From assembly GCA_041691135.1 (NCBI GenBank), contig JBEPVF010000004.1:29833-93832 (forward strand): 64,000 nt of DNA. Direction: 5' to 3'. This document shows, in pieces, positions 1,721 through 41,603 of this stretch (positions are counted from its first letter, which is position 1; each line of letters opens with the position of its first letter). The notes under the pieces were generated by a model. It was not told where the DNA came from, did not search any database, and was given only the letters and a program-made list of their open reading frames with translations. A program made the position numbers and the translations under genes. The DNA is from Candidatus Peribacteria bacterium (GTDB taxonomy: Bacteria > Patescibacteriota > Gracilibacteria > Peribacterales > Peribacteraceae).

Positions 1721-1824
1721 CTACTTACTGTACGCTCTTAAATTTTCACTTCAATGGTATAAAACTAAAGCATGGTAAAAGACCTTCTGTAAGCCACAAA
1801 TTAACAAAACGCTATACTGATTCC

Positions 1825-2376: not shown

Positions 2377-2397
2377 AGACGCCATACTAGGCATCCT

Positions 2398-4008: not shown

Positions 4009-4076
4009 AGGGAAAACGTAGAATGTACAATGAAATAAAATTGTACATTGTACATCGTCGATTGTACATTTCACCC
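4009..4076. promoter_or_regulatory. Divergent sufC / ferredoxin control region with four TGTACA palindromes
   Basis: TGTACA occurs at 4024-4029, 4042-4047, 4049-4054 and 4063-4068. ATTGTACAT occurs three times. This is the whole 68-nt spacer between the two divergent starts. Confidence 0.5.
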
Positions 4077-4361
4077 GTGCCCAGCGTCACTTTTCACTAT
4101 GGCGATCAGATCAAAGTCTTCGAAGCCGAGGACGGTCAGACCATTTTGCAGATCGCGCTGGATAACGATATCCCCATGGAACACGCCTGTGGCGGCAACG
4201 GCTTCTGTACCACCTGCATGTGCAAGATAAAAAACGGCATGGAAAACCTGAGCCCGCGCAACGACCGCGAAGAGAACATGGGCGTAATGGAAGATCCGGA
4301 CCGCCTGAGTTGTCAGTCGCAAATCAGCGGCGATGTGACAGTGGAAGTTATAGAGTATTAA
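4077..4361 (+). CDS. 2Fe-2S ferredoxin (adrenodoxin/plant-type fold)
   Basis: Cys ligand pattern CGGNGFCTTCMC...SCQ (C-x5-C-x2-C...C). A GTG at 4077 gives (M)PSVTFHYGDQ..., typical of short ferredoxins. The upstream ORF extension has no homology. Confidence 0.8.
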   Translation: MPSVTFHYGDQIKVFEAEDGQTILQIALDNDIPMEHACGGNGFCTTCMCKIKNGMENLSPRNDREENMGVMEDPDRLSCQSQISGDVTVEVIEY

Positions 4362-4363
4362 GT

Positions 4364-4786
4364 ATGTCAGAAGGCCCCGCTGATTGCCCATCGAGGAGGG
4401 GCGCAATCAAAACTATTGCAGCCTTGTTTGCAGGCGCGAAGATCTTTCCGGCGTCATCTCAGTCACACCGTTGCAACAGCGATGACGTTCGTTTTCGAGT
4501 AGCGCAGGAGATTGCCAAGTTATCTCATGCCAAATTGGCACAAATGCGCTTAATTGAAGGAGAAGGCAAAACCCTTGTAAAGAACCCACTGTTCGAACGA
4601 TACGTTCAACAGGCAGGCATCGATGACACAGTGGAAGTATTGGAAGGTTTTGACGAGGAAACATTGGACATGCCATTACATCAGAGTGTTCAAAGGGCCG
4701 TGCAAATAATGCAACGCCATCACACGTATTGTGTCACAGCCATATTCAATGCTTATCTGCGGGATGAAGACGGATTTCTTGACTGA
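4364..4786 (+). CDS. hypothetical protein with twin-arginine-like signal peptide (140 aa)
   Basis: ATG lies 2 nt after the ferredoxin stop. The N-terminus SRRGAIKTIAALFAGAKIF resembles an S-R-R-x-F-L-K Tat motif plus h-region. Confidence 0.5.
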   Translation: MSEGPADCPSRRGAIKTIAALFAGAKIFPASSQSHRCNSDDVRFRVAQEIAKLSHAKLAQMRLIEGEGKTLVKNPLFERYVQQAGIDDTVEVLEGFDEETLDMPLHQSVQRAVQIMQRHHTYCVTAIFNAYLRDEDGFLD

Positions 4787-4944
4787 CATCTGGATCAGAA
4801 TACTGTGATCGCATAGGAATACTTGTCACCCGCACCTGCCGCCCCACGATCTGCTGCTGTCAGCAGGGCTGCTGTTGTAGGTAAAAACGATTACATTTCC
4901 TACCAGCCGCCCATGATGAAGCGGTTTTTTATCTGTATTCACGC

Positions 4945-5295
4945 ATGCCTATGACCAATCAACTCTCCACTGCCATCGAAACATTTTTGGAAAGGCATCA
5001 GTCGGATCTTCTGGCGCAAACACAGCGGGACGGCTTACTGGATGAAGTTGCCCATCTGCACGAACAACCGGATAGGAAATCGAAGGTCAGTGGTGCCGAA
5101 CTAGTGGCTATCTGCACACAATTCTCCGGCGTGCTCTACGGACTGCTGCGCAGGCAAGGAGTGAACGGCGAAGCGGAAAAAACAACGATCGCCTTTCGGC
5201 AACAGTTGCTCAACCATCTGCGACACACCCTTATACCCGTGCCAAGTTCAGCAACTTCGCCTTCACCTCTTCATCATACGGCTCTAGACGATTGA
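4945..5295 (+). CDS. hypothetical protein (116 aa)
   Basis: ORF only. Its 3' end overlaps the convergent TPR gene by 65 nt, so the end or the gene itself is doubtful. Confidence 0.3.
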   Translation: MPMTNQLSTAIETFLERHQSDLLAQTQRDGLLDEVAHLHEQPDRKSKVSGAELVAICTQFSGVLYGLLRRQGVNGEAEKTTIAFRQQLLNHLRHTLIPVPSSATSPSPLHHTALDD

Positions 5296-6085
5296 TGCGG
5301 CGATAGACTCCTTCGGCCTTATCGGCATGACCCAATTGCAGATAACACTCGGCAAGCAGGTGAAGCAATTCCGTCGAACGTGACAGGCGGGCACATGCTT
5401 TTTCGAGCAATGGTGCGGCTTCCTCGAAGCGGTGTGCAGCAATACATGCGCGACCAAGAGCCGCCGAGCGTTCGGGCGACTGTGAATCACGATTGAGTGC
5501 TTCCTGATATGCCTGGCATGCCTCGATGTATTTCTCCTGACGGTAGTAGGCCAAACCGAGGTTGGCATGGAACGATACGTCATCGCGATGCTGCAAGAGT
5601 TCCTTGTACATCGCTTCGGCTTTATTTTCGCGACCCGTCGTCAGATAGAGTTTTGCCAGTTGCGCCTGCACATCCCACGCTTGCGGCTGAATGGTGAGCG
5701 CCTGGATGAACAAACGTTCGGCTTCTTCGGATTTGCTCTGCACGAGTGACTTTTCGGCGCTGCGCACGAGCGTCCTTACCTCCTGAAGTTCAATGGCGGA
5801 GAGGCGTGGGCTTTTGCGCGGACGTGAGAGCTTGGTTTCTTCGACCAGCAAGGCGCCACGGTCTTCGACAAACTGAAATCGCTGCTTCACGCTGCGCACG
5901 AAGCGACGGATCCCGCGATTGCGAAGCAGCACACGTGCCCCGAACAGGAAGCAAATGCCGAAAAGCGAGCCGGTAAGAACGAGGAGATACAGCAAGATCT
6001 GTGCCGGAAAACACCGGCATGAAAGGCTAGCACGGCGGGGTAGGAGCGGCAAGCAAACAGCCAATATATGCGCAAAAGAACGCAT
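5231..6085 (-). CDS. membrane-anchored tetratricopeptide (TPR) repeat protein
   Basis: N-terminal TM helix (ILLYLLVLTGSLFGICFLFGA) followed by several 34-residue TPR-like units (AEAMYKELL..., ANLGLAYYRQEKYIEACQAYQEAL, LAECYLQLGHADKAEGVYRR). Confidence 0.75.
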   Translation of the reverse strand: MRSFAHILAVCLPLLPRRASLSCRCFPAQILLYLLVLTGSLFGICFLFGARVLLRNRGIRRFVRSVKQRFQFVEDRGALLVEETKLSRPRKSPRLSAIELQEVRTLVRSAEKSLVQSKSEEAERLFIQALTIQPQAWDVQAQLAKLYLTTGRENKAEAMYKELLQHRDDVSFHANLGLAYYRQEKYIEACQAYQEALNRDSQSPERSAALGRACIAAHRFEEAAPLLEKACARLSRSTELLHLLAECYLQLGHADKAEGVYRRINRLEPYDEEVKAKLLNLARV

Positions 6086-6128
6086 AAGGAAAGAAATTGA
6101 CGCAACTGCCTATTATTTATCTAATCCG

Positions 6129-7136
6129 CTACTTCTCCCCTATTCCCAATACAAACCGCTGCAAAAGAAGCGGCCGCGATGCATTCGACTCCAATCCACG
6201 CAGCAAAACCGCCAATTGCGCTGCATGACGCGGCGATGCAGAAGCGATGTCTCCTTTGAGTGACAAAGATAAATGGAACAACAGGCGTTCGCCCGGCTCA
6301 CCGCGCTTTTCCAGTGGAGCCAACAGTCGCAAGCGTTCGCCGAGTCCTTTACTCTGCCAAAAAGAAACTGCGTGAGCATGCAACGTTTTTTCGGCACGCA
6401 ATACATCTGGATCATCTACTAACCGTCGCGCGACGCCCGGTGCACCCTGGGCGACCATGCGCACAAACCCTGCATCTTCTTCGGGCAGATCCACGAGCAA
6501 TGTCTCAAGTTCACTTGCCGGCAAGCGTTGAAAGGCCAGCACGCGCGCACGCGACACCAGTGTCGGCAACAGCACCGTGGATGATTGCGTAGTAAGGAGA
6601 AAGACCACGCCCGGCGGCGGCTCTTCGACGATTTTCAGGAGCGCATTCACGGCTTCATCCTGCATGCGTTCGACCGATCGGATCAGACAACAGCGATATT
6701 TGCTCATTCCGGTTTCGTAGAGCCGCTCTTGAATTGCGCGCACATCATCGATCGAAATCGTATCCGTTTTTGCCTTGGCCTTGACCCGGTGATTCTGCGG
6801 CACATTGGAATAACGGGACAGCACCTGCCAATCATCCATCGTGTCCTCCATCCATAACCGGTCCAACACCAACAGATCCGGATGGATGAGCTTGCGAACT
6901 TCTTCCTCCACTCGCGTCCGTTCTGTGTCGCCATCGGTACCTGCCAGCGACAGTTGTGTCGCAAACCATTTTGCTACCGTAAATTTGCCAACGTGAGGCG
7001 GCCCCGTAAACAGATAGGCATGAGCGACATTCTCCGTCGCCAGATCATGGGCCAGCAATTCGCGCTGCCGTTCGTGGCCGACGATGATAGGAGGCTTCAC
7101 AACTGGAGTATACTGCCTCGCTGTGATGCAGCACAT
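6129..7136 (-). CDS. holB: DNA polymerase III delta-prime subunit (clamp-loader AAA+)
   Basis: IVGHERQRELL..., AHAYLFTGPPHVGKFTVA (P-loop), LKIVEEPP and TLVSRARV (SRC-like) are typical of HolB. The ATG at 7136 is preceded by GGAG. The track ORF starts at a TTG at 7163. Confidence 0.8.
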   Translation of the reverse strand: MCCITARQYTPVVKPPIIVGHERQRELLAHDLATENVAHAYLFTGPPHVGKFTVAKWFATQLSLAGTDGDTERTRVEEEVRKLIHPDLLVLDRLWMEDTMDDWQVLSRYSNVPQNHRVKAKAKTDTISIDDVRAIQERLYETGMSKYRCCLIRSVERMQDEAVNALLKIVEEPPPGVVFLLTTQSSTVLLPTLVSRARVLAFQRLPASELETLLVDLPEEDAGFVRMVAQGAPGVARRLVDDPDVLRAEKTLHAHAVSFWQSKGLGERLRLLAPLEKRGEPGERLLFHLSLSLKGDIASASPRHAAQLAVLLRGLESNASRPLLLQRFVLGIGEK

Positions 7137-7430
7137 CACTCCACAGGCCAATCCATCGGGCAAAATAGTCGGCCATATCCCCCTATGGCGTGCCGCTTTC
7201 CGCTGTCTCTGCGTCTGCGCGGTAGAGCTGCTCCTCTATGGACTCATTGCCGGACTCGGCGTCGTCTTTCTGACTCGAGTGTCACTGTGATCTGCCTGCC
7301 TCACAGTCGTTCCCTCGTCCTGCTGCTCGCGGGTGGCTGCGCCGGGCAGAATGCCAATACATCTGATCCGCCGATTATTGACTTCTCTTCTGAGATGAAC
7401 AAATAATGCCCTCACTTTCGCCCTAGTCTA

Positions 7431-14352: not shown

Positions 14353-14492
14353 AAATATTCTTCGGTCACCTCTGTCATTTTAATTCTTAGAGTTGCCACG
14401 CGACAAAATGTGCATCGCTGCCAAGCGCAACTGTTTGGGAAAATAGCGAGAACAGCTTAACATTCATGCATCTATTTCTTGCTGTCCATCGT

Positions 14493-15008
14493 ATGAAGAA
14501 AGCAAATCAGTCCGCGTTTCAACTGCATATTTTTTCGCACCTCGGTCACGGGTTCACCCTCATCGAACTCCTCCTGGTGATCGGCATCATCGCCATCCTC
14601 GCGAGTATCGTCATCGTCGCCATCAACCCCACCAAACAGTTGGGTGATGCACGCAACGCCCAGCGTCGTTCGGATGTGAACACCCTTTTGAATGCAATTT
14701 ATCAATACGAAATCGACCGCAGCGGCGCCCTGCCGAATGCCAACATCCCGACGACCGCAGCGACAGCGAAGACCATCTGTCAGTCGACGACGGATGATGC
14801 CACCTGCGCCGGTGTGTCCATTGGCGGCATCACGCTCCGCTCTCTCACTGGTACATACATTGTGTCTGTCCCGAAGGACCCGTCCCTCACGTCCGCCCAG
14901 ACAGCCACCGGCACTCGCTACAGCATCTGGCGCGATCCGGTGAACAGCCGTCTGACGATCACCGCAACGACAACGGATCGTGCCGTACCAATCAGCGCAT
15001 CACGGTAG
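14493..15008 (+). CDS. type IV pilin (major-pilin-like), copy A
   Basis: Prepilin leader ending [27 protein letters not shown] (class III signal with Glu5). Near-identical to the product of 23265-23759. The track ORF begins 27 nt upstream; the ATG at 14493 gives a 20-aa leader. Confidence 0.85.
   Translation: MKKANQSAFQLHIFSHLGHGFTLIELLLVIGIIAILASIVIVAINPTKQLGDARNAQRRSDVNTLLNAIYQYEIDRSGALPNANIPTTAATAKTICQSTTDDATCAGVSIGGITLRSLTGTYIVSVPKDPSLTSAQTATGTRYSIWRDPVNSRLTITATTTDRAVPISASR
14550..15008. repeat. inverted repeat arm A (pilin paralog), partner at 23265-23723
   Basis: Alignable with the reverse complement of 23265-23723. Block 14723-14950 is identical base for base to the reverse complement of 23323-23550. 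Confidence 0.9.
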
Positions 15009-23264: not shown

Positions 23265-23723
23265 TTAGCGTGATGCACTGATTGCAACACCACGGTCGCT
23301 CGTTGTAGCCGTGATGGTGATGCGGCTGTTCACCGGATCGCGCCAGATGCTGTAGCGAGTGCCGGTGGCTGTCTGGGCGGACGTGAGGGACGGGTCCTTC
23401 GGGACAGACACAATGTATGTACCAGTGAGAGAGCGGAGCGTGATGCCGCCAATGGACACACCGGCGCAGGTGGCATCATCCGTCGTCGACTGACAGATGG
23501 TCTTCGCTGTCGCTGCGGTCGTCGGGATGTTGGCATTCGGCAGGGCGCCGTTGTTATCGATTGCGTATTGATACACCGCGTTCAGGATGGTGTTCACGTC
23601 CGAACGACGCTGGGCGTTGCGTGCATCACCCAACTGCTTGGTGGGGTTGATGGCGACGATGACGATACTCGCGAGAATGGCGATGATGCCGATCACGAGG
23701 AGGAGTTCGATAAGGGTGAACCC
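23265..23723. repeat. inverted repeat arm B (pilin paralog), partner at 14550-15008
   Basis: See arm A. The identical core is at 23323-23550. Confidence 0.9.
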
Positions 23724-23759
23724 TTGCGTCGACCTCCGCGATAGAAAGCGGGACTTCAT
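23265..23759 (-). CDS. type IV pilin (major-pilin-like), copy B
   Basis: Leader [39 protein letters not shown]. The mature part is about 90% identical to copy A, including an identical 76-residue core. Confidence 0.85.
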   Translation of the reverse strand: MKSRFLSRRSTQGFTLIELLLVIGIIAILASIVIVAINPTKQLGDARNAQRRSDVNTILNAVYQYAIDNNGALPNANIPTTAATAKTICQSTTDDATCAGVSIGGITLRSLTGTYIVSVPKDPSLTSAQTATGTRYSIWRDPVNSRITITATTSDRGVAISASR

Positions 23760-24851: not shown

Positions 24852-25811
24852 TTAGTATGAGTCACTGCTGATGACCTCCGCTCCGTTTCGTGTAGCCAAA
24901 GCCCACCACGCCTGGGGGCTGACCGAGTCTTTGATAAAACGAACTGAGCCGTCGACGACCAACACGTTGACTCCACCAGAGTGATTGGCGCTAGGCCCGT
25001 CGAACTCTTCCATGATATTCCATTGTGCTCCGTTGTTGACACAGCCCGGCTCGTCGGAGTTGGGCGTCCGGACAAAGTTGACAAGCAAATTGTTATAATT
25101 GCCCGTCAACTGGATCCCCTGGAGGATCGTGCTTGACGAATTCTTGCAAGCGACCCCTGCTGCAAACGTGCCCATTGGCACGGTCACTTGGACGGTCTTG
25201 CCTTTCTTGCTGCCGCCTGGGCCCATCAACCTCTCACTGAACATTGCTGTATTACTACTTCCGTCGGTGATGTCGGCGAGCCGAACGGTGAATCCATGGC
25301 CGAACATTCCATTGGGAATTCGGCCATCGTTCTCGAAGACGCTCTCAAACGGGCCGGAGCCCGTAATTCCACGGTAGCTGTTGATGCCTTGTGTGTATCC
25401 ATCCGAAGGACACACGAAGACATTCAGTTTCGTGTGACGGACGGTGGCATTGCCGTCGGGGGCGCCGTTGCACCCACCTTGTATCTCGAAAGTCGGCAAG
25501 CTGAAGTTCCAAGCGTTCATAAGATTAATTTGCTCCAGATGAGCCAGCATCAGTGCATGCTGATGCGCAATCTGGTAGCCAGGGGCCGTGCCGCACCTCA
25601 TGTCGATGCTCCCGCTTGGGATGCATCCAATAGTGTCGTGGTAGCCTTGGAGTGCAAGGCCGATTTGCTTGAGATTGTTAGTGCACTGGATCCGCCGTGC
25701 CGCCTCTCTGGCAGCTTGGACCGCAGGCAAGAGCAGCGCGATCAAGACCGCAATGATTGCGATCACGACCAACAGCTCAATGAGTGTGAAACCTCTGCGG
25801 AGGGCATTCAT
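24852..25811 (-). CDS. DUF1559 (H-X9-DG) pilin-like protein with prepilin N-terminus
   Basis: [54 protein letters not shown] plus a C-terminal [17 protein letters not shown] (H-x9-DG). Confidence 0.85.
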
Positions 25812-26587: not shown

Positions 26588-28510
26588 TTAGAGAGTACAG
26601 GCATCGGAACCGCCGCCGGAGTGAATGACGACGACATTGGTGCTGGTGACTGCGAGTATGTTGTCGTGAAGCGGATCGTACTGCATCGAGATAAGGGGAG
26701 CGCCGGCGTTCAATGTGCCGTGCACGGTAAGAGTCGATGTGCCGGCATCAATCAGCTGAAGTTGTTGATTGGCTTTATCGGTGCCGATCGCCGGATAACA
26801 TCCGACAACGTTGTTGATGGTATTCACCACTCCTGCGATATCACGGCTTCTGAGGAACGAACTGTCGGGTGGTACCAGACCACCGCTGGTATCAATCTCC
26901 CACAGTTCATCGTACGAACCGCCTTGTACGAGCCCGACGAATACAGAGTTGCCGAATGTTGTAATCGATTTGGCGGTGCCGGGCAGAGGCCAACCCGCTT
27001 GAGGCGACTGGAAGCGCGGCGCCGAATCGTCATCGAAATTGAGAACTGCGTACTGGCCGTTGACCGTATCGCCTGAAGCGATCAGCACATTATTGTCGGA
27101 CAGAACCATATCGTTCACATCGCCGAACATCTGGGTGCCACTGACGAGAGCACCGTTCCGCACAAACCATACTTCGTACGGATCAGGCGGCGGCGTACCG
27201 TCGACGAGTTCGCAACGATGGGGCTGAAGCGAAAGATCGCAAATGACGCCGGAGCAGCAGTCCGCATCCGTCAGACAGAAGAAGCCTGCTTGGGCACAGC
27301 TGCTGATGGCGGAAGATGATGACGAACTGGCCACACTGCTGGAAGCGGGTGATGAACTATTGGATGAACTGCTGGATGATGATGAAGGTGAAGAAGAGGA
27401 AGAAGAAGTCGACGAAGGGCTGGAGAAGGCCGACGCCAACGACATCAGTGACATCGAGGAAGTGGAAGAGTACGGCAACGCCATTGATAGCGACGAAGAG
27501 GAAGTCGATGGCATGCTGAACTGGGCTTCCGCCTGTGGCACCAAAAGTGACATTAAATCCCAGCGTGTCGGCGCTGAACTCATGATTGATCCCTCGAATG
27601 CCAGCGGCTGGAGCGGCGATACAGCCGCAATGTAGTTGATGCGGTATGTTGAACCGATAATGACCGTATCCGCACCCACGCCGTTCTCCTGCACGACAAT
27701 CGAGATTGCATGAACACCATTGCCGCTGAAATCATAGTACGTCGAGCAGGAGACGCCGGCCGACGGATTGCTGATATCACACTGCAGGATGGTTGATTTG
27801 CCGGTCGCTGCTGCGTTGCCCACGACATACAATTTGTTATTGCTTCCCAACGCCATTGCCCCGCCGACCAATCCGCCGGGCAGCGCCGGGGAAGCCACCA
27901 ATGTAGGGGGCGTCGTGGTGATGTTCAGTACATACAGACCGGGACCACCTCCGGAGGTAACATACGCATTGTTGCCAGAGACAACCACATCCTGCAACGG
28001 ACCGGTAAGAGACAGCGCATTGGGAATGACGGCCGGCGACGCCCAGTTGCCAAAACTGGTCGCCTGCTCCCAGTCGGTAAACTCTGTCATAACCTGCACT
28101 TGCTCGGCACGATCCACGCCGTGATGCCATTTAGTGGTGGCAGTAACACGAACACGATCGGAAGCAATCGTTCGGTCGATGAACACATTGGTCGTGTAAC
28201 CCTCGGCATCAGCTGCAATCGTGGAACTCAGTGCCCATGTCTTCGTCGCCGGATTGATCTCCACGGCCCACGTCCCTTGCGTCAAAGCTGCTGTACCTGA
28301 TGCATCACGGATGCTGCGGACACGCTCAATGGCCTCACCCGCCAAATAACTGGCGTGCGTGCGATCACTGCCTTCTACCGTACTCTTCTGTCCGTTGATG
28401 AGGACGTAGCTGACACTGCCGAGAAAAATTGCCATCACCATCACACCCACCAGAATTTCCAGCAGGAGGAATCCGTTGCGTTGCCGTAGAGTAAAGCGGG
28501 GGGCTGGCAC
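26588..28510 (-). CDS. large (640 aa) pseudopilin fused to LVIVD-like beta-propeller repeats, a Ser-rich linker and a Cys-knot module
   Basis: N-terminus RNG|FLLLEILVGVMVMAIFLG (prepilin-like with Glu5). Repeats of the type VVVSGNNAYVTSGGGPGLYVLNITTTPP. A ~65-aa Ser tract, then CAQAGFFCLTDADCCSGVICDLSLQPHRC. Confidence 0.7.
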   Translation of the reverse strand: MPAPRFTLRQRNGFLLLEILVGVMVMAIFLGSVSYVLINGQKSTVEGSDRTHASYLAGEAIERVRSIRDASGTAALTQGTWAVEINPATKTWALSSTIAADAEGYTTNVFIDRTIASDRVRVTATTKWHHGVDRAEQVQVMTEFTDWEQATSFGNWASPAVIPNALSLTGPLQDVVVSGNNAYVTSGGGPGLYVLNITTTPPTLVASPALPGGLVGGAMALGSNNKLYVVGNAAATGKSTILQCDISNPSAGVSCSTYYDFSGNGVHAISIVVQENGVGADTVIIGSTYRINYIAAVSPLQPLAFEGSIMSSAPTRWDLMSLLVPQAEAQFSMPSTSSSSLSMALPYSSTSSMSLMSLASAFSSPSSTSSSSSSPSSSSSSSSNSSSPASSSVASSSSSSAISSCAQAGFFCLTDADCCSGVICDLSLQPHRCELVDGTPPPDPYEVWFVRNGALVSGTQMFGDVNDMVLSDNNVLIASGDTVNGQYAVLNFDDDSAPRFQSPQAGWPLPGTAKSITTFGNSVFVGLVQGGSYDELWEIDTSGGLVPPDSSFLRSRDIAGVVNTINNVVGCYPAIGTDKANQQLQLIDAGTSTLTVHGTLNAGAPLISMQYDPLHDNILAVTSTNVVVIHSGGGSDACTL

Positions 28511-28640: not shown

Positions 28641-29051
28641 TCAGTAGTTCTGGGCAATCGTGACGTGCGCCGATCGGTCGTATGTGGTGAATATCATATC
28701 GCCGGTCACGCTCGGTTGGCCGGTGATCCGGTCAAACACGACCACCTGGATGCCGCTGGCCTGAATCGTATCGGGCATGTGGTATAACTCGTCAAAGTAC
28801 GGATTACGGGCATTGTAAGATGTACCGCGGAACAGCACGCCACTGGCCGAGAATCCCCACGCATCCGCATTCTGCCCGGACTGCGCCAACAGCCGCGCCC
28901 GCTCAATGCCCTGGCTGGCCAATTGCACGGCATTCGCCAAGTCCGACCGCAAAAGATACTGCGTATAAATAGGGACCGACATCGTCACGAGAATAACGAG
29001 AATCGCCACAATGATCAGAATTTCCAAAAGTGTGAAACCACGACGGTGCAT
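28641..29051 (-). CDS. GspH/FimT-like minor pseudopilin
   Basis: MHRRG|FTLLEILIIVAILVILVTMSVPIY..LRSDLANAVQLASQGIERAR is typical of the GspH/FimT family. ATG at 29051; the track ORF adds 32 residues. Confidence 0.7.
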   Translation of the reverse strand: MHRRGFTLLEILIIVAILVILVTMSVPIYTQYLLRSDLANAVQLASQGIERARLLAQSGQNADAWGFSASGVLFRGTSYNARNPYFDELYHMPDTIQASGIQVVVFDRITGQPSVTGDMIFTTYDRSAHVTIAQNY

Positions 29052-29147
29052 GGAAGGCAGTGTATCAAGAGAAGAAGAGCGAAGCGAATGAGAGAAAATT
29101 CCCACTGCCACAGTGGTTTCTGATAGTTGGCTTCTGGTTTTTTTCAA

Positions 29148-32100
29148 CTAGGTTTTCCCCACTGATCCGACCACGCTGTAGATCGGCACGATGATGGCGA
29201 TGGCGATAGTTCCGACGAGTCCGCCGATGAACAATAGAAGCATCGGCTCCAGAATCACCGGCAGCTTTTGTGCCGTGTCATTGGCTTTCTTCTGATAAAT
29301 ATCGGCGATTTTGAGCATGATCTTCGAGAGAGATCCCGATTTTTCGCCGGTCATCACCAGCTGCTGCACCGAGATAGGCAGTAGTCCGTTACTGCCGTGG
29401 ATGAGCTCGAAACTCTTGCCGAACGAATCACCCTGGTTGAGATGCTCGAGCAGACGGAAGTAGAAATTCCGATACGCAACGATGGGCGTCACTTCGGCCA
29501 GTGAGTTCACCGCTTCGATCAAGGGCACGCCCGCTTCGAGCAGACTGCCCAATATCACACCGAAACGAGCAATCGTCGCCTCGCGGGCCAGACGGCCGAT
29601 ACCCGGAACTCGGAATTCCATCCACTGGAATACTACTTTGAGCGGTGTAAATTTGGCCAGGATAACGATCAAAATCGCGCCTCCAATGGTACCCGGCACT
29701 ACAATAGCCGCGTACTGTGTAAATCCATTGGTAAAGGCAACCAGAAGACGTGTGACTAGCGGCAATTTCACATTGAGTGAGAACAGCACACCAATGAGGT
29801 TTGGCAGCACGAACAGACCCAGACCCATCACGATAATGAACATGAGGACGATAACGATGGCTGGATAGATCATCGCCATTTTGATTTTGCCTTTCAGGTC
29901 ATTGTCTTTCTCTTCCTGGTCGGCAAGATGTTCCATGTTTTGGGCCAGGTTACCGGCTTCCTCTCCGATGCGGATGAGCGATATGGCCTGCGGCGAAAAG
30001 AAGTGCTGCGCCTGGAGAGCCCGCCACAATGCACTGCCGCTCTCCACAGCTTCGACGACATTCTGAAGCATTTTCTTGAGCGGCCGCGGACGCGTTTCGC
30101 GCTGCAGCGTATGCAACGCATCGATCAGCGTCAGGCCGGCATTGAGCATGGTCGACAGGTTCTGAATCAGGTTGGTCCGCTCTTTGCCGAGTCCCAGGAA
30201 TTTGATGGCACCCATCAAATCGCGCAGACCTCCTTCTTTGACATGCAGAATGTCGAGGCGCTTCTTCACATTCTGTGTAATCTTCTGCGACTCAGGCGCC
30301 ACTGGCGCCTTCACCTCCGTCGATGCTTTGCGAAGATTACTCGTCGGTTGCTGCATCGCCTGCATGGCGGCTTTCTGCTCGTCCATCACTTCTTCGAGAG
30401 CCGTGGGATTGCGGATACTTTCGAGGTGCGAACTCGTCGAGAGGATTTTGCCGGGACTTTCAGCCGGTGCATCGGTCCCTGCGGCAGATTGTTCTGCGGT
30501 CCCCTGATCGGCCTGAGGTTGTGGCAATTCCGATGTCATCACAATCTGTCCCGGCTCCTGCGCGAAAGCCGAGCGGCTTCCGGCACTCGCCGTCTGCTGC
30601 TGAGGAGCTTGGCCCGAAGGAAAGAAGGTGGGGAAATTGCTGTTGAGGAACGAATGTAGCCGCATGCGAGCAGAACGCGTTTTGAGCTGACGCAACAGTT
30701 CCATGCTCAGTTCATCATCCGCTATATCCGCATCGGCAGCACCAGTGGATGCCGATTTTTTGCCTGGGAACAGTGTCGGAAGATATTTATGTAGCGCCGA
30801 ACGTGCACTGGCGGCACTTTGCCGGGACGCCGCGGGCTGCGATTCTTTTTTCTCGATCGAGCGAACGCGCGTCAGGTTGCTTGTGGCAGGGGTCGATAAT
30901 TCCTGTTGCACAGCGGATTTCTTCCGGAATAGGCGCTGCATGAAGCCCCGTTTTTCGATACCTTCTGGCGTCTTGTTTGCTGCGAATGGCGAGTCGGCGT
31001 CGAAGAACTTCGGTGCCTCTTGTGATGGCACCGTCTGCTCATTTGCAGACATTGGTTCGGTGGTTTTCGGCTGTGCCACGGGCGTCAGGTTCGACGTCAT
31101 CGACATGGCGGGACCGTTCGCTTCTGTTTGTGAATCACTCGCGGCGACCGAACTATGCGAGCGATGCAACAGTGATCGCAATCGACCGAACATTCCGGCG
31201 GACGGGGCGGGCGGAGCCTGTGTTCTAACGAGTGCCGATGCGGGGACCAGCGGTGCGTTCGCAAGCGGTGCATCACCGCGCGAAGGCATGGGAGCCGAAG
31301 CAGCAGGAGTCGTGCCAATCGGCATATCATCCTCCAGCGTTTCTTTGTCTACGTCGGACGAAAAGGTTGGTGCATTCGACGAAGCCGGTTCGGGCGGGGC
31401 CTGATCAGTGGACGAGAGCACAATAAAGTTACTTTCAAGATTCGGCGGAGCACCTACCGCCAGATCGTTTTGGGTGACCGGTGTCGGCGTCTCATTCTTC
31501 TGCTTTTTTGCGAAAAAATGAGCAAACAATCCCGGCTTCGGGAGAGACGGTACGGCAGTTGGTGCGACGGCCCGAGGGATGCGTGGCGACAAACGCGACA
31601 GAAGTCCGCCGAAAAGCGATGCGCGCTTGACGGGAGCGGACGGAATCGACGCTTCGACTTCAGTCTGAATCGCTTCGGCCAGCGCGGAATCCGACGCCAT
31701 AGTAGGTTCTTGCGCTACGGGTACAGAAACTGATCGGTTCTTATGTGATTTCACCGCAGCGGGAGCAGCTGCCGGAGATACCGGCTCTTCGGCCAATACC
31801 GACGGCGGAGCAGCTACTACCGGCGAGGTATCCTGACCGATTTCAACCGGAACAGATGTCCTGGCGGCAGGCACTTCGGGCCGAGCGCGTGATAGACCCA
31901 ACAGGCGAAGCAAACCGCTTTTGCGTTTTTGATGAGCAGAGGATGCGTGCGTCGTCAGTGTCTCTAATTTTCCCTTTTCTTTCACGGTCAGTGATCGGTG
32001 AAGTTCCTGAAGAAACTGTGATACTTCCGGATCGAGATTTTTGAGTGGCGCGGAAGCGTTTGCATCATGCGAAGAACGTCGTTCGGCATGACCGTGACGG

Positions 32101-32192
32101 CTCGTCTGATCCTGGTGTTGGGACGAAATATCCGCGCGGTTGCGCGGCCTCTGATGGTGCCTGCTGTTGAAAGGTTTATTTTTTCTGGCCAT
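29148..32192 (-). CDS. pilC: type IV pilus platform protein PilC/GspF with ~610-aa low-complexity N-terminal extension
   Basis: Residues ~615-1014 contain two T2SSF repeats with three TM helices (NLSTMLNAGLTLIDAL..., FGVILGSLLEAGVPLIEAV..., LEPMLLLFIGGLVGTIAIAIIVPIY). The upstream 610 codons are open, S/P/A/T/Q-rich, and start at an ATG overlapping the pilB stop. Confidence 0.8.
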   Translation of the reverse strand: MARKNKPFNSRHHQRPRNRADISSQHQDQTSRHGHAERRSSHDANASAPLKNLDPEVSQFLQELHRSLTVKEKGKLETLTTHASSAHQKRKSGLLRLLGLSRARPEVPAARTSVPVEIGQDTSPVVAAPPSVLAEEPVSPAAAPAAVKSHKNRSVSVPVAQEPTMASDSALAEAIQTEVEASIPSAPVKRASLFGGLLSRLSPRIPRAVAPTAVPSLPKPGLFAHFFAKKQKNETPTPVTQNDLAVGAPPNLESNFIVLSSTDQAPPEPASSNAPTFSSDVDKETLEDDMPIGTTPAASAPMPSRGDAPLANAPLVPASALVRTQAPPAPSAGMFGRLRSLLHRSHSSVAASDSQTEANGPAMSMTSNLTPVAQPKTTEPMSANEQTVPSQEAPKFFDADSPFAANKTPEGIEKRGFMQRLFRKKSAVQQELSTPATSNLTRVRSIEKKESQPAASRQSAASARSALHKYLPTLFPGKKSASTGAADADIADDELSMELLRQLKTRSARMRLHSFLNSNFPTFFPSGQAPQQQTASAGSRSAFAQEPGQIVMTSELPQPQADQGTAEQSAAGTDAPAESPGKILSTSSHLESIRNPTALEEVMDEQKAAMQAMQQPTSNLRKASTEVKAPVAPESQKITQNVKKRLDILHVKEGGLRDLMGAIKFLGLGKERTNLIQNLSTMLNAGLTLIDALHTLQRETRPRPLKKMLQNVVEAVESGSALWRALQAQHFFSPQAISLIRIGEEAGNLAQNMEHLADQEEKDNDLKGKIKMAMIYPAIVIVLMFIIVMGLGLFVLPNLIGVLFSLNVKLPLVTRLLVAFTNGFTQYAAIVVPGTIGGAILIVILAKFTPLKVVFQWMEFRVPGIGRLAREATIARFGVILGSLLEAGVPLIEAVNSLAEVTPIVAYRNFYFRLLEHLNQGDSFGKSFELIHGSNGLLPISVQQLVMTGEKSGSLSKIMLKIADIYQKKANDTAQKLPVILEPMLLLFIGGLVGTIAIAIIVPIYSVVGSVGKT

Positions 32193-33981
32193 GGGTCATG
32201 GTGACAAGAAGTTCGGGTGGAGCAGCGACACGCATGAGCTCCTCAATGGTGGTCATGCCTGACTTCACTTTATCGAATCCATCGTCGAACAGGTTCTTGA
32301 GTCCCTGCTTGCGGGCGAGGTTGTTCAAATCGGTTGCCGACGCTCGGGAAATGATGAGCTGTTCCATTTCGGGCGTAATGACGAGCAGTTCGTAGATACC
32401 GACGCGTCCGCGATAGCCGGTGCCTCCGCATGAATCACATCCCTTTCCTCTGTACAAACGTACCGTATCTTTTTCAGTGAAATATGCATCCGCACCCGGG
32501 AAGAGTTTGTGAGCATCGGCAACCGAAATCGAGTAACTGAAGCGACACTGCGAACAGATGCGGCGGATCAGACGTTGGCCGATCACCACTTCCAGTGTGG
32601 AGGCAAGCAGGAACGGTTCGACCCCCATTTCGAGCAAGCGCGGCACGGCGGTGGCCGCGTCGTTGGCATGGAGCGTGGAGAACAGAAGGTGTCCGGTGAG
32701 CGCGGCGTTCACTGAAATGGCTGCCGTTTCTCCGTCACGAATTTCTCCGACCAGAATGATGTTCGGGTCTTGGCGCACCAGAGCGCGCAAACCTTTGGCG
32801 AATGTGAGGTCGGTATCGGGATTCACTTGGATATGGTTGATACCGGGAATTTTGTATTCCACCGGATCTTCGATGGTGGAAATATTTACATCGGGGTGAT
32901 TGCGCATTTTGAGCAGCGCATACAAAGTCGTCGATTTTCCAGAACCGGTTGGTCCGGTCGTCAGGATCATGCCGAACGGCTTGTGAGCGACACGCTCCAG
33001 CACAGCCCGGTATTCCTCAGAGAAGCCCAAATCCTGCAACGTGAGCGTACGTACGTATTCTGACAAAAGACGAAGCACAATTTTCTCGCCGTCCACGACC
33101 GGCACGATCGAGACACGGATGTCCATCGTATTGCCGTTCGGGGTTTCGTAACGAATGGCACCGTCTTGTGCAGCATAATGCTCGTCGATCTTCATGTTGC
33201 CAGCGATCTTGATGCGGTTGACGACTCCTTCGTAGTACTCCTTTGGAATGCGTCCCGCTTCGTGCATCACGCCGTCCACGCGGAAGCGGACGATGATGAT
33301 TTTCTCCTGCGGTTCGAAGTGGATGTCTGATGCGCGCAATTCGATGGCGTCATTGAAAATTTCTTCGATGATTTCGGGCGCCACTTTGCGCTGCTGATCG
33401 ATGATCGCCTGGAAACGTGTGGCGAGCGGTTTGCGGTAGTGCACGAACAGTGAGTCGACGACGTTCTTCGGCGCATAGATGAACTGAATGGCGCCCATCC
33501 ACTTGGCACGCTCCTGCTTTTTGGCAGTCGAGAACGAGAACGATGATTTTTCTTTCTTCGTATCCTTCTTGCGCTTCGCCTCTTCTTCTTCAGCCGGATA
33601 CTCAGGCAACGTCTGATCGACATTCAGACGCATCGCTTCCTCAAGCAACGGATTTCCCGGATCGGCCGTGGCGATGGAGATCTGATCCGGTGACGGACGA
33701 GCGACAATGATGGCGCTGTACGCACGTGCAATTTCTTCGGGCATCATTCCCACCAGTTCCGATGACGGCGGCGTGGAGTGGATGTTGAAGAACGGCAGAC
33801 CGTAGTATTCGGCCAGCGCGCTTTCGAACAGTTCCTGCGACAGCAAGCCCTGTTCCAGCAGCACGTTCTTCAGCGGCACTTTGCGTTCCTGCGCTTGCTC
33901 ATTGGCATGCTGAAATTCCTCTTCGCTCAGGTAACTTTGTTCGACGAGTATTTTGCCGAGTTCGGTATCCTGGAGTGACAT
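32176..33981 (-). CDS. pilB: type IV pilus assembly ATPase PilB/GspE
   Basis: T2SSE_N domain, Walker A GPTGSGKST, Walker B ILVGEIRD, His box TGHLLFSTLHAND and tetracysteine CSQC...CDSCGGTGYRGR. Confidence 0.95.
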   Translation of the reverse strand: MSLQDTELGKILVEQSYLSEEEFQHANEQAQERKVPLKNVLLEQGLLSQELFESALAEYYGLPFFNIHSTPPSSELVGMMPEEIARAYSAIIVARPSPDQISIATADPGNPLLEEAMRLNVDQTLPEYPAEEEEAKRKKDTKKEKSSFSFSTAKKQERAKWMGAIQFIYAPKNVVDSLFVHYRKPLATRFQAIIDQQRKVAPEIIEEIFNDAIELRASDIHFEPQEKIIIVRFRVDGVMHEAGRIPKEYYEGVVNRIKIAGNMKIDEHYAAQDGAIRYETPNGNTMDIRVSIVPVVDGEKIVLRLLSEYVRTLTLQDLGFSEEYRAVLERVAHKPFGMILTTGPTGSGKSTTLYALLKMRNHPDVNISTIEDPVEYKIPGINHIQVNPDTDLTFAKGLRALVRQDPNIILVGEIRDGETAAISVNAALTGHLLFSTLHANDAATAVPRLLEMGVEPFLLASTLEVVIGQRLIRRICSQCRFSYSISVADAHKLFPGADAYFTEKDTVRLYRGKGCDSCGGTGYRGRVGIYELLVITPEMEQLIISRASATDLNNLARKQGLKNLFDDGFDKVKSGMTTIEELMRVAAPPELLVTMTHGQKK

Positions 33982-34055: not shown

Positions 34056-34553
34056 TTAAATCATAACTTCTTTCATCCGCCGGACAATTTCCAGAATCGG
34101 CGTGTTGGCTTTGACGAAGTAATCGACAGCACCGAGTGTTTTGGCTCGCAGTTTGTCTTCCTCCTGACCCAGATTGCTCAGCACGATCACCGGCGAACGG
34201 ATGCTCTGTTCCTGCAAACGTTCGAGCAACGTGAAGCCATCGAGCTCCGGCATAATCAGATCGAGAAGAATAACACTGTACTGTCCGGAGAGTGCTTCGC
34301 GGAGACCTTCGGCTCCCGTCAACGATACCTCCGTCTCGTAACCTTCGTGGTTGATTTTGAGTTCCAATGCATGTGCCAGCGGCCGCTCGTCTTCAATGAT
34401 CAGTACGCGCTTCTTTCCCGACACATCGGGTACAGCGGATACGGTCGGAGTGGGAGACGGTGAAGGCACCGGCGCGGGAGCGGGAGTCGGATTAGGTGTA
34501 GCTGCCGGAGCCGGAGAGGGTGTTACGGGAATCGAAGTATCATCCATAAGCAA
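34056..34553 (-). CDS. single-domain response regulator with Pro/Thr/Ala-rich N-terminal extension
   Basis: A 45-aa P-rich leader, then the receiver: KRVLIIEDE..., VILLDLIMPELDGF, VIVLSNLG and KTLGAVDYFVK. It is the first gene of the pilus operon. Confidence 0.85.
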   Translation of the reverse strand: MLMDDTSIPVTPSPAPAATPNPTPAPAPVPSPSPTPTVSAVPDVSGKKRVLIIEDERPLAHALELKINHEGYETEVSLTGAEGLREALSGQYSVILLDLIMPELDGFTLLERLQEQSIRSPVIVLSNLGQEEDKLRAKTLGAVDYFVKANTPILEIVRRMKEVMI

Positions 34554-37954: not shown

Positions 37955-38734
37955 TTAAAACGAGAGCAGTCCATACACATGTTCACCGGCTATCAAAGCG
38001 AGGTAGGCACCGATGACCAAAAAGGGACCGAACGGCAGCGCCTGCTGCAGTGTTTTTCGACGTGTCGTGAGCAAAAAAGTCGCCACTGCCGCACCGATGA
38101 CGTAGGCGAAGAACAACAACGCCAACGCCGGGCGCCAGTTGGCGAGCAGCAACCCGATACCGGCTCCCAATAGAATATCACCGCTGCCCACCCAGCGTCC
38201 GCGACTGATGAGCCATTGAACAGCAAAGAATCCGCCGCCGATAAAGAGTCCGCTGACATCAATCGTATGAGTGCTCAGCCACTGGAAGAGGAGCGCGAGA
38301 CCAATGATCGGCACACTGAGTGCATCTGGTATGAGCGACGTGCGTGCGTCGATGACTGCAATCAGAAAGAGCAGCCACAGAATCAGTGCCAGAAGCAACC
38401 CCGGCAAAATCGCGTACTGCACATGCCACAGCGCGAAGAGGAAGAGCAACGCACTCACGAATTCAACGAGCGGATACTGTAGTGCAATGGGCTTGTGACA
38501 ACCTGAGCAGCGACCACGCAGCGCAACGAAACTCAGAATGGGAATGAGCTCGAGTACATGCAGCAATTTGCCGCACTGCGGACAGTGCGAGCGACCGCCT
38601 ATCGATTGCTGTTCCGGCAGCCGGTAAATGAGCACATTGCCGAAACTGCCAAACACCGCTCCCAGGACACCGAAGAAACTCAGGAGCATACCCGGTGAAA
38701 AATGCGCCGCGCCCATGACGGCAGCATAGAGCAA
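37955..38734 (-). CDS. pilD: prepilin peptidase (A24 family) PilD
   Basis: Zinc motif CPQCGKLL...GRCSGCHKPI. Catalytic Asp contexts IDARTSLIPD and GSGDILLGAGIG. Polytopic membrane protein. Confidence 0.9.
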   Translation of the reverse strand: MLYAAVMGAAHFSPGMLLSFFGVLGAVFGSFGNVLIYRLPEQQSIGGRSHCPQCGKLLHVLELIPILSFVALRGRCSGCHKPIALQYPLVEFVSALLFLFALWHVQYAILPGLLLALILWLLFLIAVIDARTSLIPDALSVPIIGLALLFQWLSTHTIDVSGLFIGGGFFAVQWLISRGRWVGSGDILLGAGIGLLLANWRPALALLFFAYVIGAAVATFLLTTRRKTLQQALPFGPFLVIGAYLALIAGEHVYGLLSF

Positions 38735-39599: not shown

Positions 39600-41603
39600 C
39601 TACTGCGCTTTCAGATCAATGCTATACACATGCTTCTCGTCGAGCAGGAATAGATGTGTTTCATCCGAATCGACGTATAGATCCTGCAGCTTACCTACTG
39701 TCTCGCTCTCCAGAACATACTGGCGCAAATACTGCGCTTCACCGGTCTGGCCACCACCACTTACCACGACGACGCGGTGATTGGTGGGGTCAAGGAAGTA
39801 GAAATTGCCGTCGACCACCTTAAACATCTTCGTCGCTGTCTGCAGCAGGCCTTTGGGCATCTGGCGGATGACGAAATTCTGCGATTCACCGCGCAACAGC
39901 TTAAGAACGACACCGCCTTGTTTGAGCACGTACACGCTCGCATCAATAGACATGTCGAGCGCACCGGTCAGATCGCCGTTGACGTTGTAATTCACTGGCG
40001 TGCCATACCGGTTGGCCAGTCGTTCGTATTTGTAAATCTGTTTGGCATCGGGTGCGAGCAGATACAGGAAACGGCCATAGGTTTCGATATCCGTCCCGGT
40101 CAGCCAACCTTGGGGATCTTCGGTCTTCATTGTCGTCACCTGATTATCCGCCAGCTCCATCAAGCTGTTGCCAGTCGTCAAAAATACTTCGCTCTTGGAA
40201 CGGTCGAAATACGTGCCATCGACGATCAGGTCATCATTGCTGATGTGCCGTGGGTCATCCATCGATGACGATATGATGCGATAGCTGGCCTGTTTATCGA
40301 ACACGTACAGTTCGCTTCCCGAGATACCGATGATTCCCTGCGCCGCGATATCGGCATTCTTCGTCGCCAGATTCGCCACCAAATGCGGCTCGGTAATGCG
40401 TGTGATATTGCTGATCTGCTCGCGCTTGGCACGAACACGAGCCAGCAGATCAACTGCCTGACTGCGATAGAAGTGACTTTCGTTGTCGATCACCTGCTTG
40501 GCCTGCGATTCGGCGCGCTCCAGAATCGCATTGGCCGCATCGGGATCACCGGCCAGACGGCGCGTCTCGGCGGTCTGCAATTCGGCCGTAATCTGATCGA
40601 TGAGCGCAGCGAGCTCCTGACGAGTTTTGCTCCGCTGGCTCTCGGTCGACAGACGGATGATCATCCAGATGATCAAAAAGACGGCCAGCGCCCCGGCGAG
40701 AAGAAGAAGGTGGGCGCGCCGCTTGCGCTGTGGGTCGCGTAGGTCCGAAACGAACGTGGCAAATCCCCCGCGCAGCCGTGCCATGGTCCCACCCATCCCT
40801 CCGCCGGCACTGCGCACGCGAGCCGTGCTGCGGGACGCGACACGACTGAGGAGCGGCATCACCGTTTCTTTTGCGCGCTGCAGGTACGGCATCACCATTG
40901 CAAATTTGCTGCCCGATTGTTGGCGCGAACGACGATTGGGGAGTGCCGTCCGGCGAGCCGGACGCTGCGGCTCTTCTTGGTCGCTTGGACCGCTGCCACC
41001 TTCTACCTGGAGCGCACCCAGTGCCGCTACTTCTTTCTCCGCCTGCAGACGCAGTTTCAAATCATCAATGATTCCATCGCCCATACCGGCAAGCCGCGAC
41101 AGTTGCGCCGGCGTGACGGCACGCATCAGACGCTGCGTCGAAAAAATAACGACATCTCCCGGTTCGAGCTGCCCGCTGGAAATGTGAATGAAGTTTGGAA
41201 TGGGTTTCCCGCGGCTGAATTCGGTGATTTGGCTGGCCGCACCAGCGCGGAGCAGCCACCCTTCGCCGCGTCCGGCATGCGACACATGCAACATGCCGTT
41301 CTTTTCGATCAGCGCGATGATCGCATGCACGTCGTCGATGTTGTCGCCCACAAGCAGACCTTTGAAGAGGCCATTCATTTCTTTGAGCGTGCCATCCAGG
41401 CGCGTCCATGCCTCGCCTTCCGTATCCAGCAGCGCATGTTCAACGATTCCACGGCACTCGTGTTCCAACGCCTGCGCATCGCGCGCAGACGAGCGCACCT
41501 GCAGCAGCAGGCACACATGTTCGCCGTGGGACTGGAATGTACGCGAAACGAGAACTGTGCCATTTCCCGATGTCGTCGTCCCTGTTTGGAGCGCGAGGTC
41601 CAT
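39600..41603 (-). CDS. membrane protein: PP2C/SpoIIE-like N-terminal domain - TM - beta-propeller-like C-terminal domain
   Basis: The N-terminal ~200 aa have a PPM-like layout (HVSHAGRGEGWLLR, GDVVIFSTQRLMRAV). TM helix LLLLAGALAVFLIIWMIIRL. The C-terminal ~300 aa are repeat-rich. The functional call is tentative. Confidence 0.55.
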   Translation of the reverse strand: MDLALQTGTTTSGNGTVLVSRTFQSHGEHVCLLLQVRSSARDAQALEHECRGIVEHALLDTEGEAWTRLDGTLKEMNGLFKGLLVGDNIDDVHAIIALIEKNGMLHVSHAGRGEGWLLRAGAASQITEFSRGKPIPNFIHISSGQLEPGDVVIFSTQRLMRAVTPAQLSRLAGMGDGIIDDLKLRLQAEKEVAALGALQVEGGSGPSDQEEPQRPARRTALPNRRSRQQSGSKFAMVMPYLQRAKETVMPLLSRVASRSTARVRSAGGGMGGTMARLRGGFATFVSDLRDPQRKRRAHLLLLAGALAVFLIIWMIIRLSTESQRSKTRQELAALIDQITAELQTAETRRLAGDPDAANAILERAESQAKQVIDNESHFYRSQAVDLLARVRAKREQISNITRITEPHLVANLATKNADIAAQGIIGISGSELYVFDKQASYRIISSSMDDPRHISNDDLIVDGTYFDRSKSEVFLTTGNSLMELADNQVTTMKTEDPQGWLTGTDIETYGRFLYLLAPDAKQIYKYERLANRYGTPVNYNVNGDLTGALDMSIDASVYVLKQGGVVLKLLRGESQNFVIRQMPKGLLQTATKMFKVVDGNFYFLDPTNHRVVVVSGGGQTGEAQYLRQYVLESETVGKLQDLYVDSDETHLFLLDEKHVYSIDLKAQ

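Follow-up and report, generated by a model that had tools for sequence, protein, structure and literature searches.

Why is a pilus platform protein 1014 residues long when some 330–420 are expected of the PilC/GspF family? The question is raised by a pilC gene (29148..32192, minus strand; 1014 codons plus a stop, opening with ATG and encoding two T2SSF repeats) in a stretch of 64,000 nucleotides from a Candidatus Peribacteria bacterium (assembly GCA_041691135.1, contig JBEPVF010000004.1, positions 29,833 to 93,832), which we call the window throughout. An earlier note on this DNA had assigned the surplus to a long N-terminal arm. Residues 77–416 of Myxococcus xanthus PilC (3jc8, 417 aa) match residues 669–1011 of the window protein (E 5.6e-34), so a canonical N-terminus is expected near residue 593, and ~593 residues lie ahead of it. 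From the sequence comparisons set out below, we conclude that this arm is almost certainly translated as part of PilC. A long PilC arm is moreover a clade-wide trait of Candidatus Peribacteria (Peregrinibacteria, within the Candidate Phyla Radiation, CPR), though of very variable length. [quoted passage not shown]

The open frame and its orthologues

The pilC frame stays open from the canonical core back to an ATG that overlaps the end of pilB by 17 nt, as had been described, and we confirm the open reading frame (ORF) at 29148–32192. pilB itself (32176..33981, minus strand; 601 aa, with an MshEN domain and a T2SSE ATPase domain) lies directly upstream. The overlap between the pilB stop region and the pilC start (32176..32192, minus strand) is an ACC-ATG junction, in which the pilC ATG (32190–32192) sits inside the last pilB codons: pilB ends ATG ACC CAT GGC CAG AAA AAA TAA and pilC starts ATG GCC AGA. 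We found no Shine–Dalgarno sequence before the ATG at 32192, and the overlap suggests that the pilC start is translationally coupled to pilB. On the identical contig in the public Logan assembly, pilC is called at full length.

Over 30351–32192, the ORF frame has no in-frame stops against 11–19 in each of the other five frames; shuffled sequences are expected to have 14–21, which gives a probability of zero stops of ~1e-6 to 1e-9. We also scored codon usage as log-odds trained on 24 other genes of the window, using 300-nt windows and six frames. The ORF frame came top of the six in every 300-nt window of the arm, so that the coding potential looked for in this region is there, if weakly.

A search with the core as the query gave 738 relatives; among the best 120, most have a length of 600–750 aa, and the one with a source name is from Candidatus Peribacteraceae. 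A scan of one genome per species gave 80 loci. In nearly all cases their titles read Candidatus Peribacteria, Peribacteraceae, Peribacter or Peregrinibacteria, and a few read just Patescibacteria group, ‘bacterium’ or Kiritimatiellales. pilB was located in 78 of these loci, at an interval of 18 to 1388 codons from the core; in 72 of them, the core frame runs open as far as the pilB stop or beyond it, irrespective of spacer length. Four loci have arms that are colinear with that of the window over its whole length, with no stops and no frameshifts: L002 (core identity 84%, arm of 631 codons), L003 (83%, 615 codons), L004 (73%, 775 codons) and L005 (69%, 608 codons). These relatives were reached via the core because the arm diverges too fast for sequence search. 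Used alone as the query, the arm matched just the window's own protein among 5.8 billion clusters and just the L003 orthologue among 1.84 billion representatives; across both collections, arms homologous to that of the window are confined to its own sub-clade.

Only the L002/L003 pair is informative for the ratio of non-synonymous to synonymous substitution rates (dN/dS), since arm dS is saturated between the window and its relatives and ratios from those comparisons are unusable. In a frame-blind nucleotide alignment of L002 and L003, all 12 of the arm indels are multiples of three, and mismatch rates by codon position are 0.24/0.24/0.42. By the Nei–Gojobori method, the arm (602 codons, 63% identity) has a dN/dS of 0.31 and the core one of 0.053; dN is ~15 times higher in the arm. 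Comparisons of the window with L002, L003 or L004 show 26–27 indel events, and the frame is intact. The basic N-terminus and the start junction overlapping pilB are conserved as well: an overlap of 14–17 nt is kept in L002, L003 and L004, the start codon being GTG in L004. Homologous extensions with an intact frame, third-position signal and dN/dS, all of which the earlier note had pointed to as checks on its reading, thus speak for translation.

The alternative of a non-coding spacer would have the frame held open by a GC-rich, stop-poor composition, with the real ~400-aa PilC starting at M603 or at a GTG at codon 631. This would fit the low codon-usage score of the arm, the presence of antisense ORFs in the region, and a GGAGG placed 4 nt before the codon-631 GTG, there being no Shine–Dalgarno sequence ahead of the ATG at 32192. 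The antisense ORFs (233–243 aa), which had been put forward as a sign that composition alone could keep the frame open, are fragmentary (11–16 stops per frame), have a negative codon-usage score, and differ in position in L002 and L003; we rejected them as genes and ascribe them to composition. A conserved internal start near 30420 (M603, MDEQKAAMQ) had also been considered as a possible refutation, but this residue is replaced by Leu in L002 and L003 (LQEQAAAA), and those two genomes do not keep the contexts of the Shine–Dalgarno-like internal starts (codons 290 and 631) either. Against the spacer also stand the improbability of a stop-free frame by chance, a frame that is intact and colinear in five genomes despite the indels, the in-frame indels, third-position bias and dN/dS of the L002/L003 pair, islands of conservation that begin at residue 1, and the open frame in 72 of 78 genomes. 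Judged on these sequence data, the spacer is effectively refuted, with a very small probability left to it, and the view that a 1.8-kb non-coding gap is unlikely stands. The same internal starts bear on a further possibility, that the gene yields two isoforms, one of full length and one of canonical length made by internal initiation, with the long form being regulatory or minor. The ATG and GTG codons with Shine–Dalgarno-like sequences at codons 290 and 631 would allow for this, and gene callers do place the start of some relatives internally (P0122, for instance, is the L003 protein with its start set at MDPEV). Given that the internal contexts are unconserved in L002 and L003 whilst the start overlapping pilB is conserved, we consider two isoforms quite improbable.

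The canonical core and a disordered arm

The platform module occupies residues 637–1014 (29151..30284, minus strand) and shares 76–87% identity with its counterparts in L002–L004. Pfam finds T2SSF as its sole domain, in two stretches (E 2.3e-49; score 167 bits, cut-off 25.2), the first at residues 676–797. The NCBIfam profiles for GspF, HofC, PilC and ComGB (332–419 positions) align from residues 644–671 to the C-terminus and have no match within residues 1–640; for TIGR02120 (GspF), positions 63–397 of 401 align with E 1e-64. Sixty-six 19-residue windows of the core have a Kyte–Doolittle hydropathy above 1.6, and AlphaFold2 (AF2) predicts helices at residues 734–805, 812–848 and 955–1012, with a predicted local distance difference test score (pLDDT) of 70–94. 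The window protein scores below every NCBIfam equivalog cut-off (GspF, HofC, PilC-Thermus, PilC-Myxococcus and the ComGB set; 219/424, 202/401, 181/700, 149/700 and 135/240 bits). It is therefore a divergent member of the T2SSF family with no named equivalog, and because no cut-off is reached, NCBIfam does not distinguish between roles in a type IV pilus (T4P), type II secretion or competence. The extra length leaves the membership of the core in the PilC/GspF family unaffected. The earlier note was right that a canonical double-T2SSF core lies at the C-terminus and that canonical proteins have ~400 residues, as the profile lengths and the 417 aa of M. xanthus PilC show; its boundary at residue 615 needs to be moved, as the block conserved across Peribacteria begins at residue 637 (KITQNVKKRLD).

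The arm comprises residues 1–636 (30285..32192, minus strand) and is marked out as a lineage-specific region, predicted to be disordered and cytoplasmic, by its open frame, its low pLDDT, its lack of a transmembrane segment or domain, and its orthologues. Its tip is basic (net charge +7 in residues 1–40), and 49% of the arm is A/S/P/T/Q with Cys and Trp absent; the overall charge is near neutral (+9 over 640 residues), with basic and acidic blocks alternating. The highest 19-residue Kyte–Doolittle hydropathy is 0.86, compared to 3.18 in the core, so the hydropathy scan shows no transmembrane segment in the arm, and neither Pfam nor NCBIfam finds a domain in it. The arm is thus no known domain, and the description of it as basic at its start, then S/P/A/T/Q-rich, without membrane segment or recognisable domain, is borne out. 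The label ‘low-complexity’ was however overstated: the mean entropy in 40-residue windows is 3.51 bits in the arm versus 3.61 bits in the core, and ‘compositionally biased’ fits better. DNA repeats, whether tandem or direct, are absent from the arm to any meaningful extent, and it is consequently not a recent repeat expansion. Nor is it featureless, as the note's account implied, since it holds the conserved short linear motifs described below.

The disorder that had been anticipated is seen in the AF2 model, where pLDDT is <50 over nearly all of residues 1–650, the exceptions being short helices at 55–67 and 602–610. The model was built from a 43-row alignment in which the arm portion is effectively a single sequence, so that low pLDDT alone is weak evidence for disorder; it is nonetheless consistent with the composition, the divergence rate and the absence of domains. 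The N-terminus of PilC/GspF is cytoplasmic by established family topology, and the arm should therefore be cytoplasmic too. Taken together, it is very probable that the arm is intrinsically disordered and cytoplasmic. By this same N-in topology, it sits beside the core domains that meet the PilB hexamer.

In a neighbour-joining tree of the PilC cores, the basal lineages have arms of 18–160 codons and most derived lineages 240–440, whilst the window protein, L002, L003, L004 and L005 form one clade with arms of 608–775 codons. L020 represents an independent expansion to 1388 codons beside relatives with 320–389. A separate feature is seen in the main Peribacteria group, in which arms of ~300 residues end in a long predicted helix just before the core; in P0028, this pre-core helix spans residues 262–314 (pLDDT 71–79), and the group consensus is KGRILSAADLxKE...EKEVKEIKxEM. 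The window protein has the short helix 602–610 at this position.

Conserved motifs and what they may bind

A four-way alignment of the arms shows fixed islands in a constant order, separated by scrambled linkers that diverge past alignability. All positions that follow are on the minus strand. The basic N-terminus MARKNKPFNSRHHQRPRNR (residues 1–19, 32136..32192) aligns with MSKNKSNRRARG in L002, MPRNRSDRRAQ in L003 and MVKKNNPS in L004. Residues 53–74 (31971..32036), LDPEVSQFLQELHRSLTVKEKG, are near-identical in L002–L005 and contain helix 55–67, the sole confident helix of the arm in AF2, with an acidic FLxELHRSL motif. Towards the core come the island KFFDADSPFA (residues 395–404, 30981..31010; FFGDAESPF in L002 and L003, FFGADSPF in L004), the motif SALHKYLPTLFPGKKS (residues 465–480, 30753..30800), which was recognised by a profile hidden Markov model (HMM) for the clade-wide pattern ΦxxΦΦP[FT]ΦF plus a basic residue (Φ, hydrophobic), and the most conserved block of the arm, DDELSMELLRQLKTRSARMRLHSFLNSNFPTFFPSG (residues 492–527, 30612..30719), which holds a second such motif, ΦPTFF. 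Two further islands in the alignment are RSAFAQEPGQIVMTSE (residues 540–555, 30528..30575) and TSSHLESIRNPTALEEV (residues 586–602, 30387..30437), the latter about where a canonical PilC would begin.

Interspersed with these islands are five basic-hydrophobic segments in which the sequence drifts whilst position and character are kept. The first, KSGLLRLLGLSRAR (residues 91–104, 31881..31922), has the counterparts KIGVLLRFFGRIMA in L002 and TGRLRRFFRRFW in L003. The second, KRASLFGGLLSRLSPRIPR (residues 189–207, 31572..31628), matches our search pattern and corresponds to RRNSLWRSLFSRRR in both L002 and L003; the third, KPGLFAHFFAKKQK (residues 219–232, 31497..31538), corresponds to RPGFLRRLFARKKE in L002 and RPRFLRRLFAGK in L003. 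For the fourth, SAGMFGRLRSLLHRS (residues 331–345, 31158..31202), the counterparts are EQGFFHQLTSFFGG (L002) and KKGFFGQLTRFFGA (L003), and for the fifth, KRGFMQRLFRKKS (residues 414–426, 30915..30953), they are KRAGLLSTFLRRGRK (L002 and L003) and RPGIFRQIGLAF (L004). These five copies take the form GΦΦxxΦΦx followed by a basic residue, and the arm also has two copies of ΦPTΦF.

Two motif classes link the window arm, at the level of sequence, to the otherwise unalignable arms of other Peribacteria. Class A has the form ΦxxΦΦP[FT]ΦF with K/R after it (e.g. VLEKVVPFLFRKKKK) and 43 instances near the N-termini of homologues; its Pro and Phe never vary across 37 aligned sequences, and in a typical 689-aa homologue AF2 predicts it as a helix with pLDDT ~72. 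The HMM made from the 43 instances, all in other Peribacteria PilCs, scores 16.0 bits on residues 465–481 of the window protein, a value reached by none of 500 shuffles (maximum 8.4). In a six-frame translation of the 64-kb window, it gives a single match at 15.3 bits, the next best being 2.9, and across 894 kb of Peribacteria loci, each of the 18 matches that reach 10 bits falls inside a pilC arm. Class B is [DE]x[FW][LM]x[KRE]Φ (e.g. EEGFMQKVK, DSFLQRVQKK) and includes the window helix 55–67. Read as indicative values, there are 30 class B motifs observed versus 0.5 expected in the 39 arms of at least 200 residues, and 35 versus 6.7 for the pattern ΦΦxxΦΦ plus basic in 59 arms; the window arm has three strict matches to the latter versus 0.19 expected, and the genomes of its sub-clade have 3–4 copies each. 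As a separate observation, the longest arm found, the 1388 codons of L020 (CALREJ010000006.1, pilC ORF 1822–7143), carries six copies of a class A variant, RTFLGVxIPFTG, three of GWMxKV, and an Ala/Lys-rich repeat, KKQAAEEHRxAxKAE.

A tether model would accommodate these features as follows. The arm would form a multivalent, flexible tether around the base of the pilus. PilC is oligomeric in known systems, and 2–3 arms would thus be displayed per machine, each having ~8 motifs and an estimated random-coil radius of ~9 nm. Most likely, the degenerate basic-hydrophobic motifs (GΦΦxxΦΦ then K/R) would bind the anionic inner leaflet, weakly and additively, whilst the ΦΦP[FT]ΦF motifs with their invariant Pro-Phe and the acidic FLxELHRSL helix would dock the motor proteins PilB, PilT or PilM, so raising the concentration of these partners at the platform. 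The conserved islands would be the binding sites and the linkers would be spacers, the length of which is itself probably under little constraint. CPR pilus systems generally comprise PilB, PilT, PilC, PilM, PilN, PilO and PilD (PMC6744442). That the motifs are functional binding sites appears somewhat better than an even bet from their conservation; the assignment of particular motifs to the membrane or to a given partner is tentative, and may well be wrong. A more ambitious version, which we think distinctly unlikely, would make the arm a new T4P motor module, a membrane-hugging disordered scaffold in which Pro-Phe peptides and FL helices capture PilB/PilT (or PilM) and basic amphipathic motifs pin the chain to the inner leaflet. 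Together, in this version, they would build a dynamic collar or condensate around the platform that supplements or replaces the PilM–PilN–PilO ring and sets motor occupancy in ultra-small cells.

Several observations weigh against the tether. The regular expressions for both motifs were written after inspecting the data, and the class A HMM draws on relatives belonging to the loci it was tested on, making its specificity test partly circular; the enrichments are therefore indicative and not formal tests. The hydrophobic moments of the motifs are 0.50–0.82, versus 0.45 for the MinD membrane-targeting sequence (MTS); a hydrophobic-moment scan of the arm, meant to reveal amphipathic helices, has a number of peaks no different from that of shuffled sequences and does not separate the motifs, and we draw no support from it. 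AF2 leaves the five basic-hydrophobic motifs of the window protein unfolded. The codon-usage score of the arm is weak (0.06 bits/codon, versus 0.44 in the core). The extreme range of lengths, with apparent secondary shortening in some lineages, points to weak constraint on much of the arm. Finally, pilM, pilN, pilO and pilT, looked for because the arm might replace the alignment complex, are all absent from the 64-kb window, a result that is silent on the rest of the genome.

Some of the same facts would be expected if the arm were translated but essentially functionless, a neutrally expanding and contracting appendix whose motifs are remnants or a guard against aggregation or proteolysis. Lengths of 18–1388 codons with apparent secondary shortening inside long-arm clades, an arm dN ~15 times that of the core, and the lack of any homologue outside the sub-clade in either sequence collection are all in keeping with this, and the basal Peribacteria and all characterised bacteria manage with a PilC of ~400 aa. 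On the other side, a dN/dS of 0.31 is clearly <1, the islands are near-identical amid scrambled linkers, two motif classes occur 5-fold and 60-fold above expectation across unalignable arms, the Pro-Phe is invariant in 37 homologues, and a small CPR genome keeps 1.8–4.2 kb of arm sequence in many lineages. We therefore see the functionless appendix as unlikely, albeit the strongest of the rivals. Less probable again is a polyelectrolyte role, in which the arm would bind nucleic acid or the nucleoid (so holding incoming DNA at the foot of a competence-type pilus) or act as an entropic bristle that excludes ribosomes and the nucleoid from the motor of a very small cell. In favour, K/R-rich arms with histone-H1-like AKK/PKK runs are frequent among the homologues (K+R up to 23%, with a net charge per residue of +0.05 to +0.10); the contour length of 640 residues nears the cell diameter by our estimate, and a function of CPR type IV pili in DNA uptake has been proposed (PMC6744442). 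The window arm is however near neutral (+9 over 640 residues) with alternating blocks, conservation lies in the hydrophobic motifs and not in the runs of charge, and Pfam and NCBIfam reveal no known nucleic-acid-binding domain.

Neighbouring genes and comparison with known systems

pilC is followed by a prepilin gene at 28641–29147, with further N_methyl genes and pilD nearby. Directly upstream of pilB, a receiver-only response regulator (34056–34553, minus strand) has a Pro/Thr/Ala-rich N-terminal extension of ~45 residues, which makes it the second T4P-linked protein here with a disordered N-terminus. PilB residues ~128–165 are a Lys/Glu-rich, low-complexity insert, EEEEAKRKKDTKKEKSSFSFSTAKKQERAKW, between the MshEN and ATPase domains that is kept in L002 and L004; this insert may offer the PilC arm a counterpart surface. 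Downstream of pilC, a 640-aa protein (26588–28510, minus strand) has a prepilin-like GFLLLEILVG start, a near-pure Ser tract of ~70 residues and a Cys-rich, knot-like segment, CAQAGFFCLTDADCCSGVICDLSLQPHRCE; it has a weak UPF0506 match in the Cys-rich segment and a weak LVIVD match, and looks like a putative giant minor pilin or tip adhesin. Also within the pilus cluster, a prepilin-type protein (24852–25811, minus strand) pairs an N_methyl motif with a DUF1559 (SBP_bac_10) domain of full length (E 1e-48), a domain that is mostly associated with Planctomycetes. Two separate prepilin genes (14466–15008, plus strand; 23265–23759, minus strand) have in common an 81-nt segment of 95% identity (14547–14627 and 23646–23726), covering the N-terminal methylation and transmembrane region. 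A 667-aa ORF (39600–41603, minus strand) with one central hydrophobic segment and no Pfam match lies ~0.9 kb from pilD (37955–38734) on the same strand.

Of the core components of type IV filament machines, PilC/GspF is the one least understood, and models of it assume a compact protein of ~400 aa in which small cytoplasmic domains link the ATPase with the insertion of pilins. In a whole class of CPR bacteria, by contrast, the cytoplasmic face of PilC bears a further 0.3–1.4 thousand disordered residues with conserved docking-type motifs; these bacteria are believed to rely on their pili to attach and to take up DNA. The long arm is clade-wide and motif-conserved, and the organisms are uncultured. 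The Peribacteria genome paper notes only the presence of type IV pilus genes (PMC4736985). We found no description of an extended or disordered PilC in the full-text literature, and the claim that this is an undescribed elaboration holds as far as that search shows. The trait is invisible to homology-based annotation, because searches with the arm alone matched nothing outside the sub-clade, and P0122 is a warning that gene callers start long-arm pilC genes inconsistently. Should membrane or motor ATPases prove to be what the motifs bind, the arm would be a first case of a recruitment layer of intrinsically disordered regions and short linear motifs in a pilus machine, and the arms, from 18 to 1388 codons, would offer a natural length series for studies of tether evolution.

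Compared to the canonical PilC/GspF/ComGB proteins (PF00482; 3jc8, Thermus thermophilus PilC 2whn, Vibrio cholerae EpsF 2vma/3c1q, Klebsiella PulF), the core of the window protein is an ordinary member: it has the two T2SSF repeats, and its gene lies after that for the assembly ATPase and before pilin genes, with pilD nearby. Unlike these proteins of 332–419 residues, it has ~590–636 additional residues at the N-terminus, to which nothing in solved structures or curated families corresponds. The arm itself has a parallel in FtsZ, which combines a variable disordered linker with a conserved partner-binding peptide of ~14 residues (PMC12607630). Arms of the window type likewise combine a variable disordered linker with short conserved peptides, but they are N-terminal to a membrane protein and have several motifs per chain, whereas the FtsZ peptide is single and C-terminal to a polymerising GTPase. 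The ΦΦP[FT]ΦF motif followed by K/R has a tentative likeness to the FtsZ peptide, D-I-P-x-F-L-R-K, which is a lead only.

The MTS of MinD binds membranes only at a valency of at least two, and that of MinE consists of hydrophobic residues with an R/K/K cluster (PMC6803595). Like the MTSs of MinD, MinE and FtsA, the short arm segments (GFMQRLFRKK, GLFAHFFAKKQK; five copies per chain) are hydrophobic plus basic and share a hydrophobic i,i+1,i+4,i+5 pattern with flanking basic residues, a pattern that we defined post hoc; by analogy, they may bind membrane. They differ in that the MTSs are terminal on soluble ATPases, whilst the arm segments are internal to the disordered region of a protein that is already embedded in the membrane. 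In overall character, the arm can also be set beside the linker of FtsK and the P/Q-rich linker of ZipA, which are long, Pro/Gln/Ala/Ser-rich, poorly conserved, disordered cytoplasmic parts of membrane-anchored machines. The PilC arm is similarly Pro/Gln/Ala/Ser-rich and disordered and varies widely in length between species; the FtsK and ZipA linkers join two folded domains, whereas the arm runs from the platform core to a free, basic N-terminus with no folded tip.

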